64,000 nucleotides of DNA from a virus (taxonomy: Duplodnaviria > Heunggongvirae > Uroviricota > Caudoviricetes): positions 5,712 through 69,711 of the IMG/VR virus record IMGVR_UViG_3300037502_002518, one strand, 5' to 3'. Positions 5,686 to 21,542 of this stretch are shown here, piece by piece. Every line of letters begins with the position of its first letter. Position 1 is the first letter of the stretch. The notes beneath the pieces were generated by a model. It did no database searches and had not been told where the DNA came from. It worked only from the letters and a program-made list of their open reading frames with translations. The translations under genes and the position numbers were made by a program.

Positions 5686-5901
5686 ATGTTTAAAATGAAC
5701 AAAAATGAAAACAAAACAAACACGTTACTACTGGTAGTTATTGCAGGTGCAATCCTATTCTTTGGGATTTTTGCAATGAACAAGTTTAATGAAAGCGAAG
5801 AAGAAAAAGAACGAGAAGAACGATATGAACAGCTAGAAAAACAGAAAGAAGAGATTGATAAAGTTAACGAGTATTTAGACCTTAGAGAAGAGCTTGAATA
5901 G
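5686..5901 (+). CDS. small membrane protein (one TM helix followed by an E/K-rich tail)
   Basis: hydrophobic stretch LLLVVIAGAILFFGIFAM. Confidence 0.5.
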   Translation: MFKMNKNENKTNTLLLVVIAGAILFFGIFAMNKFNESEEEKEREERYEQLEKQKEEIDKVNEYLDLREELE

Positions 5902-9216: not shown

Positions 9217-10236
9217 ATGTCAGCAGAAAAAACAAATGGCAAGTTTAAGTTAGAAGGTTTTGTAGAAGGGTTAAATGGGGAATTTGCTTTTCGTGAGGGG
9301 TACACAAAGACAGACAAGCATTACAAGTCTTTATCTTTCTTTGTTCAAACGTCAAAGACAAACAAGATTCGAGTAGAACTGTTTGGTATGGTTCGTGACA
9401 AAGTTAAGGCTTACTCAAGTAAAGCAAAGAAAACAAAAGATGTTAGCTGGGAAGCACGAGACAAAGACCATAAAGATTACAAAGTAATGGGAACAAACAT
9501 TGAGGTAGAGGAAAACGAAAAAGGAAAGCTTGTACGAAAAGTTTTAGTTGAGTACGATGCAATTGATTACTTACGTAAAAATTTAAAAGATGGCGATGCA
9601 GTACGTGTCAATGGTGATGTAGATTTTCAATCATTTGAAGATAAAAACGGTGAAAAAAAATATTCAACAAAATTCCCGTTCCGATATATTAAAAAACTTA
9701 CAGAAGATGAAGCAAAAGAGATTGATTTAACTACTGACAACATTGTTGGAAAGTCAGTATTTGAACAAGACATTATTATCAATGAAGTCGAACGTGATGA
9801 TGATATGGGCAAGCTTTTAGTCCATGTATTTACTGTAAAATACAATGGGGATATTGTTCCTGCAACACTTGTTGTAAATACAGAAGACCTTCCTAAGCTT
9901 GCAAAGAATCTGGAGAAACGCTTAAACTTTGGTGACTTGTTAACTGTATATGGCAATGCAGTCAATATGGCAGTTACAGAGCCATCTGGAGAAGCAGAAT
10001 CAAGCCTAGAAGATGACGAATGGGGCGGAGATGAAGAGCTTGAAGATGAGTTTGACACAATCAATTCTTATGTCAATGAGCTTCAGATTCGTTCAGTCAA
10101 AAAAGGCTCTCACGAACCAAAAATGTATAACGAAGATGATTTAATTAGTAAAGACGAAGATGCATTCAATGGAGACATTGATGAAGATATTGACGAAGAT
10201 TTTGATGATGAAGATGATGAAGACCTTCCATTTTAA
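9217..10236 (+). CDS. ssb: single-stranded DNA-binding protein-like (long form, acidic C-terminal tail ending DEDDEDLPF)
   Basis: RBS AATGAGGTGG; C-terminal acidic tail with terminal hydrophobic-P-F typical of SSB; position before recombinase and helicase. Confidence 0.55.
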   Translation: MSAEKTNGKFKLEGFVEGLNGEFAFREGYTKTDKHYKSLSFFVQTSKTNKIRVELFGMVRDKVKAYSSKAKKTKDVSWEARDKDHKDYKVMGTNIEVEENEKGKLVRKVLVEYDAIDYLRKNLKDGDAVRVNGDVDFQSFEDKNGEKKYSTKFPFRYIKKLTEDEAKEIDLTTDNIVGKSVFEQDIIINEVERDDDMGKLLVHVFTVKYNGDIVPATLVVNTEDLPKLAKNLEKRLNFGDLLTVYGNAVNMAVTEPSGEAESSLEDDEWGGDEELEDEFDTINSYVNELQIRSVKKGSHEPKMYNEDDLISKDEDAFNGDIDEDIDEDFDDEDDEDLPF

Positions 10237-10255: not shown

Positions 10256-10282
10256 AAAATAGGGGATACCCCCCTATTTTAT
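10256..10282 (+). terminator. rho-independent terminator (AATAGGGG...CCCCTATTTT)
   Basis: GC-rich hairpin plus T-run after ssb. Confidence 0.65.
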
Positions 10283-10345
10283 GGCACTTAAACAAGGTAG
10301 GCAAACGCAACTTTTATAAAACAAACGAAAAGGATGAGTGATAAA

Positions 10346-10420
10346 ATGGGACTATTAGATTCAATTAAACCGAATGAACCAAAGGCAGACTTAAAAGATT
10401 ATTTTGTGCTAGTATATGGT
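10346..10420 (+). CDS. Sak4/RecA-like recombination ATPase, exon 1 (MGLLDSIKPNEPKADLKDYFVLVYG)
   Basis: short ORF with RBS AAAGGATGAG; ends in first half of a Walker A motif. Confidence 0.6.
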
Positions 10421-10738
10421 GAATAACTACGCCCCCTTATGTGGTGACATATAAGATGGACACCTGTAAGAATCGGGAAGGCTAAGTTGTAAGATACAAT
10501 ATGCTAATCCGAGCCGAAGTTACAGAGTAACGTTTGTAACAGGCGCAACGCATAGGAATGAAACTGACACAATATAAAAAAGGGTGTAAAATATGGATGT
10601 CAGAATATAAATTTTCCCACGAGACAGGTGCAACTCTATGAGTTGAAAAGATATGCTGAACTGAGGATGAAAAAACATCCTATAATGCGGTGAAAGCCCC
10701 AGAAGTAGAGGATAAAAAGCCTTTACGATAACATTATG
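10421..10738 (+). mobile_element. putative group I self-splicing intron (318 nt, no ORF)
   Basis: interrupts a conserved P-loop; 5' exon ends in U, element ends in G; candidate P7 pairing AACGCATAGG / CTATAATGCGG. Confidence 0.55.
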
Positions 10739-11737
10739 GTAGGAAAATCTGGAAAGACTACGCTTTTTTATGAATTAGCAAAAACAGATTATGTTGGTGG
10801 GCTAGATAAAGCCCTTTTGGTTGGATTTGAAGACGGATTCAAAGCATTACGTGGCATCAATGCAATTAGTATTAACACTTGGAAGGAATTCACAGAACTT
10901 GTAGATGAGTTATGCACTAACAAAAAAAGCCATACATTTGAGTGGATTGGACTAGACACTCTTGATTACCTTTACGATTATGCTACAGATTTTATCGTTA
11001 GACGTGAGCGTGTTGCACGTAAAGATGCAAAAATTAAACAAATTAGTGACATTCCATGGGGAGCTGGATATAAATTAGTTTCCGATGAAGTAGACTCTCA
11101 AATCAAAAAGCTTCAAGCACATGGCTTTGGCTTGTTCGCAATTACTCACGATAAAGAAAAGAAAATTGAACTTAAGAGTGGAGAGTCTTATGATAAGACT
11201 ACACTAACATTATCAAATCGTGCAAAAGATTTATTTGTCAACATGGCAGATTTTATTACCTATATTTCAATTGAAAAAGAAGTTGATGGAGATAATTCTG
11301 TAAAAGAAAATCGCTGGATTTACTTCCGTTCAGATGGAAATATTGAAGCTGGTTCACGATTCACAAATATTGTTGAGCGTGTACCATATGGGGCGGATAA
11401 CTTCTTGAAAGCTTTTGAAGATGCAGTATTGTCATCTTATGATGGAGATGAAGATGCTAAAGATGAAGCAAAGAAAGAACAAAAAGAAGAGAAGTTAAAA
11501 GAAATTGAAAAGATTGAAGACGAAGCAAAAGAAGAAATTGAAAAAGCAAAAGAAATTGAAGAATCTATGACTGATGCTGACATGATTGAATTAATTGGTA
11601 CTTTAATTAATGATATGGATGACACACAAAAAGATGATTTTAAAGTTAAAATCAAATCAGAGTTTGGTAAAATCAATTACAAAAAATACGACTCTGAACA
11701 GTTAGCACAAGCTTTACAAATTGCAAAAAATATCTAA
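10739..11737 (+). CDS. Sak4/RecA-like recombination ATPase, exon 2 (VGKSGKTTLF...)
   Basis: joined product gives Walker A GVGKSGKT; AAA/RecA-like fold features; acidic coiled C-terminal region. Confidence 0.6.
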   Translation, partial: VGKSGKTTLFYELAKTDYVGGLDKALLVGFEDGFKALRGINAISINTWKEFTELVDELCTNKKSHTFEWIGLDTLDYLYDYATDFIVRRERVARKDAKIKQISDIPWGAGYKLVSDEVDSQIKKLQAHGFGLFAITHDKEKKIELKSGESYDKTTLTLSNRAKDLFVNMADFITYISIEKEVDGDNSVKENRWIYFRSDGNIEAGSRFTNIVERVPYGADNFLKAFEDAVLSSYDGDEDAKDEAKKEQKEEKLKEIEKIEDEAKEEIEKAKEIEESMTDADMIELIGTLINDMDDTQKDDFKVKIKSEFGKINYKKYDSEQLAQALQIAKNI

Positions 11738-19798: not shown

Positions 19799-20525
19799 GC
19801 TAAAAAAGGGGAAAGAAAGTGAGAATTATTTTCACTTAAATAATTTGTTAAATATTCCAAAAGATGGAAAGATACAACTAAATAAAGACAAAGAGGCTGT
19901 AAAAGAATATTTCCTTGAGTACGTGAATCCAAATACAATGTTCTTTCATTCATTAGAAGAAAAGTTGGGATATTTGATTGAAAATGATTATATCGAAGAA
20001 GATATGATTAACAACTATAGCAAGGAATTCATTAAAGACTTATTTAAAAAGGCATATGACAAGAAGTTTAGGTTTAAAAGTTTTATGGGAGCATATAAGT
20101 TTTATTCCCAATATGCTATGAAGACAAATGATGGAAAGTGGTTCTTAGAACGATATGAAGACCGTGTTGTCTTTAACGCTTTAAAGCTTGCAATGGGAGA
20201 CGAAAGTTTAGCAGATTCGCTGGTTGAAGAAATGATAAACCAACGTTATCAACCTGCAACTCCAACATTTTTAAATGCAGGGAAAAAGAGACGTGGAGAA
20301 TTTATTTCATGTTTCCTGCTTACAATTGATGACTCTATGAATTCAATTGGACGTGCAATTAATTCTGCTTTGCAACTATCGAAGCGAGGTGGAGGGGTAG
20401 GAATCGGATTATCTAACATTCGTGCCAACAATGACCCAATCAAAGGTGTTGAAGGTTTATCGGACGGTGTTGTTCCTGTCATGAAGTTGTTAGAGGATTC
20501 GTTCTCATATGCCAATCAACTGGGT
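19785..20525 (+). CDS. nrdE: class Ib ribonucleotide reductase alpha subunit NrdE, exon 1
   Basis: [24 protein letters not shown] motifs; ends ...SYANQLG. Confidence 0.8.
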
Positions 20526-20848
20526 TGACATACAGGCTCAGTATAAAACGGGTTAACTGCTGGAACTTCTTTAGAGCTTAATGCGCCACAACGCAACTGG
20601 AAACGGTAATCGTAAAGGCTTAAAAAGTATTAAGATTAGAAAATCAGCATCCACTCCTCTAAGTGTTAAAACATAAGAGGAAGGTTCAACGACTAAGTGA
20701 CAGCAAAAGTGATTTTGTTGTCCGAATCCGTTAAATGTTTAATAAATAACACTCTTTATTAAATATGAAATATATAGTCTGTTCTTTAGGGAGACCTAAA
20801 GAGTGTAGCAGAAATGACTGCACCCCACGTTAGTGGAGTAACAAAAAG
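20526..20848 (+). mobile_element. group I intron 1 in nrdE (323 nt, no ORF)
   Basis: R-like AACGACTAAG and S-like ATATAGTCTG P7 elements; 5' exon ends U, intron ends G; splicing restores ANQLG|QRSGSGVTYL. Confidence 0.7.
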
Positions 20849-21265
20849 CAAAGGTCTGGTTCTGGAGTAACGTACTTGAATATCTTCCACCCAGATGTGA
20901 TTGACTTTCTTGCAGTAAGAAAAGAGAATGCAGATGAAAAGGTTAGAATTAAAACTTTATCTCTTGGTTTAGTTGTCCCAGACAAATATTATGAGCTTGT
21001 AAAAAACAATGAGAATATGTATCTTTTCTCTCCTTATGATGTTGAAAAAGAATATGGAAAACCTTTCTCATATATTGATATTACAAAAGAATATGACAAC
21101 ATGGTTAATAATAAAAATATTCGTAAATCTAAGATTAAAGCGAGAGAATTAGAAACTGAAATTAGTAATCTTCAAAATGAAAGTGGTTATCCTTATATTA
21201 TTAATATTGACCATGCAAACAAAGCCAACCCAGTTCATGGAAAAATTATCCAGAGTAACTTGTGT
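20849..21265 (+). CDS. nrdE: NrdE exon 2
   Basis: ...YLNIFHPDVIDFL ... SNLC. Confidence 0.75.
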
Positions 21266-21542
21266 AAACAAATGCACCTTTAAGTAGGAATGCTTATCGA
21301 AAATCCTGTTAAACGGGGAAACCCTCACTTGAGACAATCCCGTGCTAAATTTATTTGATACATTATGTTTTTTTAAATAATAAATGCCGAACGACTATCC
21401 CACTATGGGAGTACACTACAAGCCTTTGGTGGTGGAAAAGCAGGACATCCAGAACGGATGATGATATAGTCTGCTCTATATGGTGACATATAGCTGTGGT
21501 TAGCCCACGCTCTAATTTTAGCGAGATTAGAGGAACAAAAGG
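21266..21542 (+). mobile_element. group I intron 2 in nrdE (277 nt, no ORF)
   Basis: AACGACTATC and ATATAGTCTG elements; junction restores SNLC|VEIFQV... with the expected 23-residue spacing to DISCNLGS. Confidence 0.7.

Follow-up and report, generated by a model that had tools for sequence, protein, structure and literature searches.

What interrupts the recombinase gene of a tailed phage in the middle of its nucleotide-binding loop, and is the gene still used as one coding unit? The question is raised by a stretch of 64,000 nucleotides (nt) of a Caudoviricetes virus (IMG/VR record IMGVR_UViG_3300037502_002518, positions 5,712 to 69,711), referred to here as the window, in which a Sak4-like gene (AAA_24 family, SPbeta YorG-type) is split within the codons of its Walker A motif. 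A first-pass annotation made from the letters alone had placed a group I intron lacking an open reading frame (ORF) at this point, and its coordinates for the first exon (10346 to 10420), for the resumption of the gene (10739) and for the length of the gap (318 nt) all hold. The current analysis indicates that 10421-10738 is very probably an endonuclease-less group I intron of the phage subgroup IA, of the type with a P7.1 extension and with a P2 and 3' tail like those of Twort and T4. The earlier proposal is borne out by homologues that align without a gap across the junction, by a core that covaries, by a covariance model match that runs to 10738, by introns at the same site in two other phage lineages and by a ratio of nonsynonymous to synonymous substitution rates (dN/dS) of 0.07 over the joined exons. 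All features of the window described below lie on its plus strand.

The split gene and its joined product

The first exon (10346..10420) comprises 25 codons from the ATG at 10346 (MGLLDSIKPNEPKADLKDYFVLVYG) and aligns with the N-termini of intact homologues. It closes with a GGT at 10420 (...DYFVLVYG), and U10420 is the 5' splice-site U. Past 10420 the frame reads GAA TAA, with an in-frame stop at 10424-10426. The second exon (10739..11737) has 332 codons plus a stop and begins with VGKSGKTTLF. The intron between them (10421..10738) is of phase 0, separates the P-loop codons for Gly25 and Val26 and ends in G10738, the terminal (omega) G; a 5' exon ending in U and a gap ending in G had both been pointed out before and are both seen. 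Joining 10420 to 10739 gives a protein of 357 amino acids (aa) in which G-VGKS-GKT satisfies the pattern GxxxxGK[ST], and the Walker A sequence GVGKSGKT is present solely in the joined exons. The start used by gene callers for a 333-codon ORF, the ATG at 10736-10738, is made up of the final three bases of the intron.

The ribosome-binding site at the ATG 10346, previously called good, is present but of no more than moderate strength (GAGTG, or AAGGA lying 12 nt upstream); in a relative from ENA assembly ERZ778607 (NODE_33974, hereafter L010) it is AAGGAGAGGG. Upstream of the ATG 10736 no Shine-Dalgarno sequence was found. The longest ORFs in the gap 10421-10738 are of 27 aa (plus strand) and 52 aa (minus strand), none of them with a Pfam hit, and the window copy encodes no homing endonuclease. 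The G+C content of the gap is 39%, as against 33% for the exons and for the window.

The joined protein matches the Pfam family AAA_24 (PF13479) with 105.4 bits (E 4.5e-30; cut-off 27), and the addition of exon 1 widens the coverage of the profile from positions 12-195 to 3-195. It also matches PHROG 124, described as 'Sak4-like ssDNA annealing protein', with an E-value of 9e-43. The designation Sak4-like is a name from database annotation, and a role in single-stranded DNA annealing or recombination is predicted from sequence. A search of 5.8 billion proteins revealed 58 relatives, most of which are 347-362 aa long and span 97-100% of the joined query. The alignment with 20 homologues, a comparison with Sak4/AAA_24 proteins that had been suggested as a check, is gapless through the junction (YG|VGKSGKT), where the uninterrupted homologues show YFILCYGVGKAGKTTLF; K28, G30 and K31 never vary, and at least 90% retain G25. 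In all, over 50 uninterrupted homologues match across the join in this gapless way, intact ones of 348-361 aa among them. The gaplessness of the joined alignment and the wider AAA_24 coverage are far beyond chance.

Homologues of this gene in isolate phages were collected from INPHARED, where the closest is that of Brevibacillus phage Sundance (61% identity). All 66 isolate phages with a homologue have the gene contiguous through residues 1-261. The contrary case raised in the first-pass annotation, of homologous phages carrying two separate genes at this point, was not seen among them, and its comment that descriptions of introns in sak4-type genes are uncommon agrees both with the absence of a split gene from these 66 phages and with a literature search, in which no paper linking the two was found. 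Just two database proteins start with M-VGKSGKT. One of them (P0001) is the truncated 333-aa ORF call of the window itself, on a 117-kb JGI contig, and the other (P0002), encoded by L010, is 67% identical to the window protein.

The best PHROG match of residues 28-349 is to phrog_19299 (E 5.8e-52), which is labelled 'terminase large subunit', and several RefSeq records of Lactococcus phages likewise give this label to an AAA_24 protein. The label looks like a propagated misannotation.

Fold of the intervening RNA

The RNA of the gap has the elements of a group I intron, namely a U•G pair in P1, a terminal G together with P10, a P3/P7 pseudoknot, a P4-P6 stack, P8 and a bulged P7. Extra helices between the 5' strand of P7 and the 3' strand of P3, as in subgroup IA, are also present. 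An internal guide sequence, CUAC|GCC (10427..10433), is complementary to the ligated exons GGU|GUAG. P1 (10418-21 with 10430-33, GGUG/CGCC) includes the wobble U10420•G10431 and is formed by GGU of exon 1 and G10421 of the intron. P10 (10739-42 with 10427-30) pairs GUAG of exon 2 with CUAC, which directly adjoins the P1 portion of the guide. Such a contiguous P10 and P1 guide is found in five other members of the intron family described below, each matched to its own, different exons.

An alternative P1, in which GACAUAUA (10446-53) would pair with the exon sequence UAUAUGGU, was considered and rejected. It places a G×A mismatch beside the wobble, has no P10 partner adjacent to it and would abolish the GNRA-capped P2, whose pairing persists in L010. 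This P2 hairpin (10436..10455, CUUAUGUG-GUGA-CAUAUAAG, with a GNRA loop) is part of the minimum-free-energy fold.

The pseudoknotted core begins with P3 (10461-67 with 10624-30, CACCUGU/ACAGGUG), which shows compensatory changes in all seven of its pairs, with 100% of the cells paired in 12 sequences. The P4-P5-P5a domain (10473-10512) consists of P4 (10473-77 with 10508-12, UCGGG/UCCGA), P5 (10481-82 with 10503-04) and P5a (10487-91 with 10495-99), and its loop houses the endonuclease gene in most relatives. It is followed by P6 (10513-15 with 10542-44, GCC/GGC) and P6a (10519-23 with 10536-40, GUUAC/GUAAC).

P7 is formed by A10548, a bulged C10549 and GCAUA at 10550-54, with the partner UAUGCU at 10652-57; three of its six pairs covary and 100% of the cells are paired. 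The pair G10550-C10656 adjoining the bulge is the probable guanosine-binding site. The P7 proposed earlier (10547-56 with 10680-90) had the 5' strand, AACGCATAGG, right and the 3' strand, CTATAATGCGG (10680-10690), wrong. The latter overlaps a hairpin region absent from most members of the family, and it is 10652-57 that covaries.

The P7.1 extension (10555..10617) has the closing pairs GGAA/UUCC (10555-58 with 10614-17) and an inner helix P7.1a (10564-69 with 10598-603, CUGACA/UGUCAG), and five of five closing pairs covary. A CACGAG junction begins at 10618 and leads into the 3' strand of P3 (10624-30), the P8 hairpin CAACUC-UAU-GAGUUG (10631-45), the joining segment J8/7 AAAAGA (10646-51) and the 3' strand of P7. 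Further downstream a P9 hairpin AGGAUG/CAUCCU (10664-69 with 10676-81) is an extra hairpin specific to the subfamily, and the GAAA-loop hairpin GGU-GAAA-GCC (10689-98) is the equivalent of the single P9 of shorter relatives. The 3' tail (10701..10733, AGAAGUAGAGGAUAAAAAGCCUUUACGAUAACA) carries the signature of the family and includes the P9.1 hairpin GUAGAGG-AUAAAAAG-CCUUUAC (10705-11 with 10720-26), in which five of seven pairs covary.

The unconstrained minimum-free-energy fold, at -82.3 kcal/mol as compared with -65.6 ± 5.0 kcal/mol in shuffled sequences (z = -3.35), contains P1, P2, P3, P8, P9 and P9.1.

Interruptions of another kind (group II intron, intein, transposable element or a bypass during translation like that of T4 gene 60) have nothing in their favour beyond the bare fact of an interrupted gene, and their probability is close to negligible. 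Rfam gives no group II match at any threshold; an intein requires an open frame, yet the stop comes two codons in; neither terminal inverted repeats nor a transposase are found; and 318 nt far exceeds the known bypass gaps. The group I core, on the other hand, accounts for every conserved block.

Covariation and covariance model searches

Pairing was counted in two ways. In the first count, conserved junctions in 12-14 members of the family served as anchors, and each strand was read at a constant distance from them. P3, P4, P6 and P7 were found to be paired in 100% of the cases and P7.1, P8 and P9.1 in 96-99%, as against just 53-84% when a strand was set against the partner strand of another member. 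The second count made use of a MAFFT alignment of 12 introns with the variable P5 loop, the site of the endonuclease gene, excised. In this alignment 98.9% of 456 pair cells are paired, a figure that drops to 76.0 ± 1.3% in shuffled data and to 33-45% if the partner strand is shifted by 1-3 columns. Both sides have changed in 29 of 38 pairs, and none of 500 shuffles attains any of the five measures. Hardly a base of the window's P3 (CACCUGU/ACAGGUG) agrees with UCGGGCA/UGCCCGA, the form found more often.

Eleven members, none of them a Sak4 intron, served to build a covariance model of 146 positions and 28 pairs, which spans the 3' two-thirds of the intron from J6/7 to its 3' end. The best match of this model in the 64-kb window is 10545-10738, at full length, with 85.9 bits and an E-value of about 8e-19 by a rough calibration, and this match terminates exactly at the predicted 3' splice site 10738. 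The next match in the window has 21.5 bits (20686-20848) and overlaps an intron recognised by Rfam. The model also matches the intron orf142-I2 of phage Twort with 41 bits (E 5e-8).

Some points weigh against the reading as a group I intron. P1 is short, with three exon pairs and one intron pair, and is the weakest among six members checked. The 3' strand of P2 (ACAUAUA) might pair competitively with exon 1. For the second count, in addition to the excision of the P5 loop, 2 nt of J3/4 had to be removed in two rows of the alignment so that the columns matched. Finally, the scan with the Rfam model for group I introns (RF00028, Intron_gpI), which had been proposed as a check, failed to recognise the intron. 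Searched to E<=10, it gave just a partial match of 15.1 bits (E 0.26) and did not reach the gathering threshold of 50 bits; the matched segment, 10474-10511, corresponds to RF00028 positions 62-94 in the P4-P5 part. Other members of the phage intron family also fall below the RF00028 threshold or are clipped by it, and the miss is therefore a matter of model coverage and not of an absent fold.

In the intron of Clostridium phage phiCP13O (locus L003, 1356-1538) the RF00028 alignment has 40 bits, below the threshold, and ends at 1502. The tail GAAG-P9.1-CGAUAAC runs on to 1538, 36 nt past the Rfam end, so that RF00028 does not reach the 3' ends of these introns.

A phage intron family with a shared 3' tail

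BLAST searches with the 33 nt at 10701-10733 (AGAAGTAGAGGATAAAAAGCCTTTACGATAACA) revealed 100% identical sequences in phages of Staphylococcus, Mammaliicoccus, Clostridioides, Alicyclobacillus and Arcanobacterium. The matches amount to 47 records in all, with phages of Clostridium, Bacillus and Caldibacillus among them, and within the window the tail occurs once. In every case inspected, the motif is the 3' end of a stretch interrupting a conserved gene. The genes split by members of this family include the tape-measure genes of BMBtp13, phiCP13O, CBP1, TPWB06 and c-st, the terminase gene of IMEP5, the DNA polymerase gene of MMB025, the major tail protein gene of vB-SscS-F1 and the portal gene of CD1801. 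An HNH or other endonuclease ORF is frequently present within these introns. The members have in common a core of P3'-P8-J8/7-P7' and, farther upstream, blocks of J3/4-P4-P5 and P4'-P6-J6/7-P7. Exact-pattern scans of viral_contigs and metagenome_contigs for the 5' half of the intron gave no match.

Core helices such as P3 and P8 have hardly any sequence in common between these phages, and yet the tail is identical even across host phyla. This identity is probably due to tertiary contacts.

The terminal ATG, UUG or GUG of the intron is conserved in the family independently of the host gene. It is an intron-final AUG or UUG in phase 0 in all members whose reading frame could be established, namely in the loci L001 (1633), L002 (1592), L003 (1536), L006 (1535) and L009 (1536) and in the window (10736). 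This triplet is read as the start of 'exon 2' by gene callers and in GenBank annotation, and split tape-measure, terminase and Sak4 genes are therefore recorded as two genes.

The same observation bears on the possibility that the locus comprises two independent genes separated by a structured non-coding spacer, one for a peptide of 25-26 aa and another for an N-terminally shortened ATPase that starts at 10736. An in-frame ATG does stand at 10736, and the annotators of related phages routinely begin exon 2 at that triplet. This arrangement is nevertheless scarcely credible. The triplet is part of the intron end, which the family conserves in whichever gene it occupies, the homologues run through this point as one gene, their N-terminus is matched by the 'peptide', and the 'spacer' scores 86 bits against the intron model.

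The tape-measure gene of Bacillus phage BMBtp13 (L002) apparently contains two different group I introns. The first, at 1-144, is recognised by Rfam with 53.6 bits and is cut by the edge of the locus, and the second, at about 467-1594, is a member of the present family and encloses an HNH nuclease ORF.

Introns at the same site in other phages

The gene of L010, which shares 67% aa identity with that of the window, has the exon 1 MLDILNIVPNEPKVDLKDYFVLVYG followed by an intron of 407 nt (1889-2295) at the same codon and with the same guide sequence. This intron has 90 extra nt in the P7.1 loop and a 44-aa ORF (2064-2198) that extends into the core. The ORF has no Pfam hit.

A scan of IMG/VR identified two further contigs, L034 and L035, that match from residue 26 onward with 38% aa identity. 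In L035 (IMGVR_UViG_3300006097_000019) exon 1 ends in ...YMWLIAG, with GGT at 1110-1112, and is followed by an intron of 1388 nt (1113-2500) at the same Gly|Val position. Exon 2 begins with GTTCCAAAAGCTGGTAAAACT (VPKAGKT) and the guide is UGGAGU|GCCA. The P7.1 loop of this intron encodes a LAGLIDADG protein of 214 aa (1704-2348; PF14528, E 5.6e-11) along with an ORF of 95 aa (1407-1694), and L034 carries the same arrangement. The intron-less form of the site reads TATGGTGTAGGA. No significant similarity was found between the 90-nt insert of L010 and this LAGLIDADG gene (best tblastx E-value 0.02, in a search of one sequence). As the site is occupied in L010 and in L034/L035 too, the P-loop codons are a recurrent intron site of this gene family, and of the introns found there, that of the window is reduced furthest.

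Over 205 codons of the joined exons, exon 1 included, the window and L010 differ with dN of 0.18 and dS of about 2.5, which gives a dN/dS of 0.074. By this measure the split gene is functional and is under purifying selection as a joined frame.

The introns of the window and L010 are 93% identical (295/317), unpaired positions included, as against 65-70% for the exons. Where the two differ within a helix, the bases still pair (G•U to A-U in P2, C-G to U•G in P6, U•G to A-U in P9a), and P9.1 is paired both as GUAGAGG/CCUUUAC in the window and as CUGAGAG/CUUUCAG in L010.

These comparisons bear on whether the intron is a decayed remnant no longer able to splice, with the Sak4-like gene a pseudogene or only a 333-aa fragment being made. 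The lack of an endonuclease gene, the short P1, the failure of the Rfam model and the database gene calls, which give just the 333-aa ORF (P0001), would all fit such a remnant. It is nevertheless very unlikely, as all the core helices are intact in the window copy, the helix substitutions relative to L010 are compensatory and both exons are open and in frame in two lineages, with the low dN/dS extending to exon 1. Moreover, the 333-aa fragment would be without the first strand and without the first glycine of the P-loop, both nearly invariant in the homologues, and its ATG at 10736 has no Shine-Dalgarno sequence.

The group I intron of the window is much younger than its host gene, and lateral acquisition is therefore indicated. 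The exon flanks of the window and L010 are identical only from -6 to +5, covering the bases paired to the guide, so that no co-conversion tract is visible. Most likely the intron would have arrived by homing from an endonuclease-bearing copy such as that of L035, with subsequent loss of the endonuclease gene, a route suggested by intron anatomy and by what is established about group I introns. Movement between divergent Sak4 alleles without an endonuclease, for instance by reverse splicing, might be read from the 93% identity of the introns next to exons saturated at synonymous sites (dS about 2.5) and from the missing conversion tract, and is considered unlikely. Recent endonuclease-driven homing with very short conversion tracts and later loss of the endonuclease is the ordinary alternative to it; L035 still has the gene and L010 the 90-nt insert.

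Proposed splicing of the Sak4-like message

The anatomy, taken together with established knowledge of group I introns, suggests the following course of catalysis. The pre-mRNA would fold into the P1-P10 structure, and a free guanosine bound at G10550-C10656 of P7 would attack the phosphate 3' of U10420, held in the U•G wobble of P1. The terminal G10738 would next occupy the same guanosine site, and the guide CUAC|GCC would align GUAG of exon 2 beside GGU of exon 1 for ligation of the exons. The ligated message would encode ...VLVYG-VGKSGKTTLF... with the complete Walker A motif, and from unspliced RNA no more than a peptide of 26 residues would be expected. With the stop at 10424-26 and without a Shine-Dalgarno sequence before the ATG 10736, production of the protein should need splicing.

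Comparison with known introns

Phages are known to carry several group I introns in genes of nucleotide and DNA metabolism, as exemplified by bnrdE and bnrdF of SPbeta-type phages and td and nrdB of T4. These introns, as well as those recognised by Rfam in the window, have the canonical P7 GACUA/UAGUC and pass the Rfam threshold, in contrast to 10421-10738. Two matches to RF00028 in the window are above the threshold, 20507-20801 (52.5 bits) and 21256-21493 (84 bits), both with the P7 GACUA/UAGUC. The first-pass annotation had counted four introns in ribonucleotide reductase (RNR) genes, and no search was aimed at the other two. Its suggestion that the Sak4 intron belongs to a lineage different from the RNR introns is right as regards the letters of P7 (GCAUA/UAUGC as against GACUA/UAGUC) and does not stand as regards the structural kind, which is the same. 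The P7.1 extension and the Twort-like 3' tail are shared, and the family member L003 has GACUA/UAGUC. The difference is a two-pair compensatory swap in the same architecture.

The family model extends the intron at 20507-20801 to 20848, and the real 3' end of that intron may lie about 47 nt past the Rfam end.

The intron orf142-I2 of Twort (subgroup IA2) reportedly self-splices and is said to have a solved crystal structure. The sequence used for it is 98% identical to the GenBank entry AF132670, which is annotated 'contains group 1 introns'. It has the same layout of P7 as the window intron, an A, a bulged C and then five pairs. After P7' both continue with GAAC, a P9 with a GNRA loop, GAAG, a P9.1 hairpin and CG(A)UAACAUnnUG, the end of Twort being CGUAACAUAAUUG. 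Twort differs in the letters of P7 (GACUA/UAGUC, as against GCAUA/UAUGC in the window), in the sequence of P9.1, in the P7.1/7.2 region and in its host gene, which is structural. The Rfam-type consensus of the R and S elements is reached by Twort and not by the window intron.

Introns of subgroups IA1 and IA2 have been described in tape-measure, terminase and tail-tube genes of prophages of the Bacillus cereus group (Tourasse & Kolsto 2008, PMC2504315). Like the window intron they are carried by phages of Firmicutes, interrupt the host gene where it is most conserved, often lack a complete endonuclease gene and have P1 and P10 adapted to each site (PMC2504315). The tape-measure intron of the B. 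thuringiensis phage BMBtp13 (L002) is a direct member of the present family. The host gene differs, being in the window not a structural gene but that of a DNA-metabolism ATPase of a large SPbeta-like phage.

A group I intron interrupting the gene of a recombination ATPase with a RecA-like fold also has precedents in the recA genes of Bacillus anthracis and phage 0305phi8-36, which are cited in PMC2504315. The B. anthracis intron is likewise without an endonuclease gene and reportedly still splices, and the recA introns are described as IA1/IA3-like in subclass and as unrelated to the prophage tape-measure introns. Their host family is RecA and not AAA_24/Sak4.

A search of the literature for an intron in a Sak4, yorG or Walker A recombinase gene found nothing relevant. 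Subgroup IA introns in phage tape-measure, terminase, tail, td, nrd, DNA polymerase and recA genes are well described. What is new is the host gene and the site only, and the intron is otherwise a member of an ordinary family that is already common in phages of Gram-positive bacteria. One more gene of DNA metabolism, at its most conserved motif, is thus added to the homing sites of phage group I introns, and three stages of the intron life cycle are seen at one site, with an endonuclease (L035), with a presumed remnant insert (L010) and in minimal form (the window). The understanding of introns or of Sak4 is unchanged by this finding.

Its value is chiefly practical and lies in the correction of annotation. 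The true product would be the 357-aa protein with a complete P-loop and not the 333-aa ORF given in public databases (P0001, P0002). The same error recurs across the intron family, and the single group I model of Rfam misses introns of this family or ends 36 nt early.

Genomic neighbourhood

The genes neighbouring the split gene encode a YorF-like protein, a guanylate kinase, a YorH-like protein and a helicase. The YorF-like and YorH-like neighbours point to an SPbeta-like phage. Phages of this group are known for introns in their ribonucleotide reductase genes.

A G+C-rich hairpin, AUAGGGG-AUAC-CCCCUAU, with runs of A and T on either side, occupies 10257-10283, between the end of the YorF-like gene at 10236 and the start of the Sak4-like gene. 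It is terminator-like, and the scan flags it on the minus strand only.

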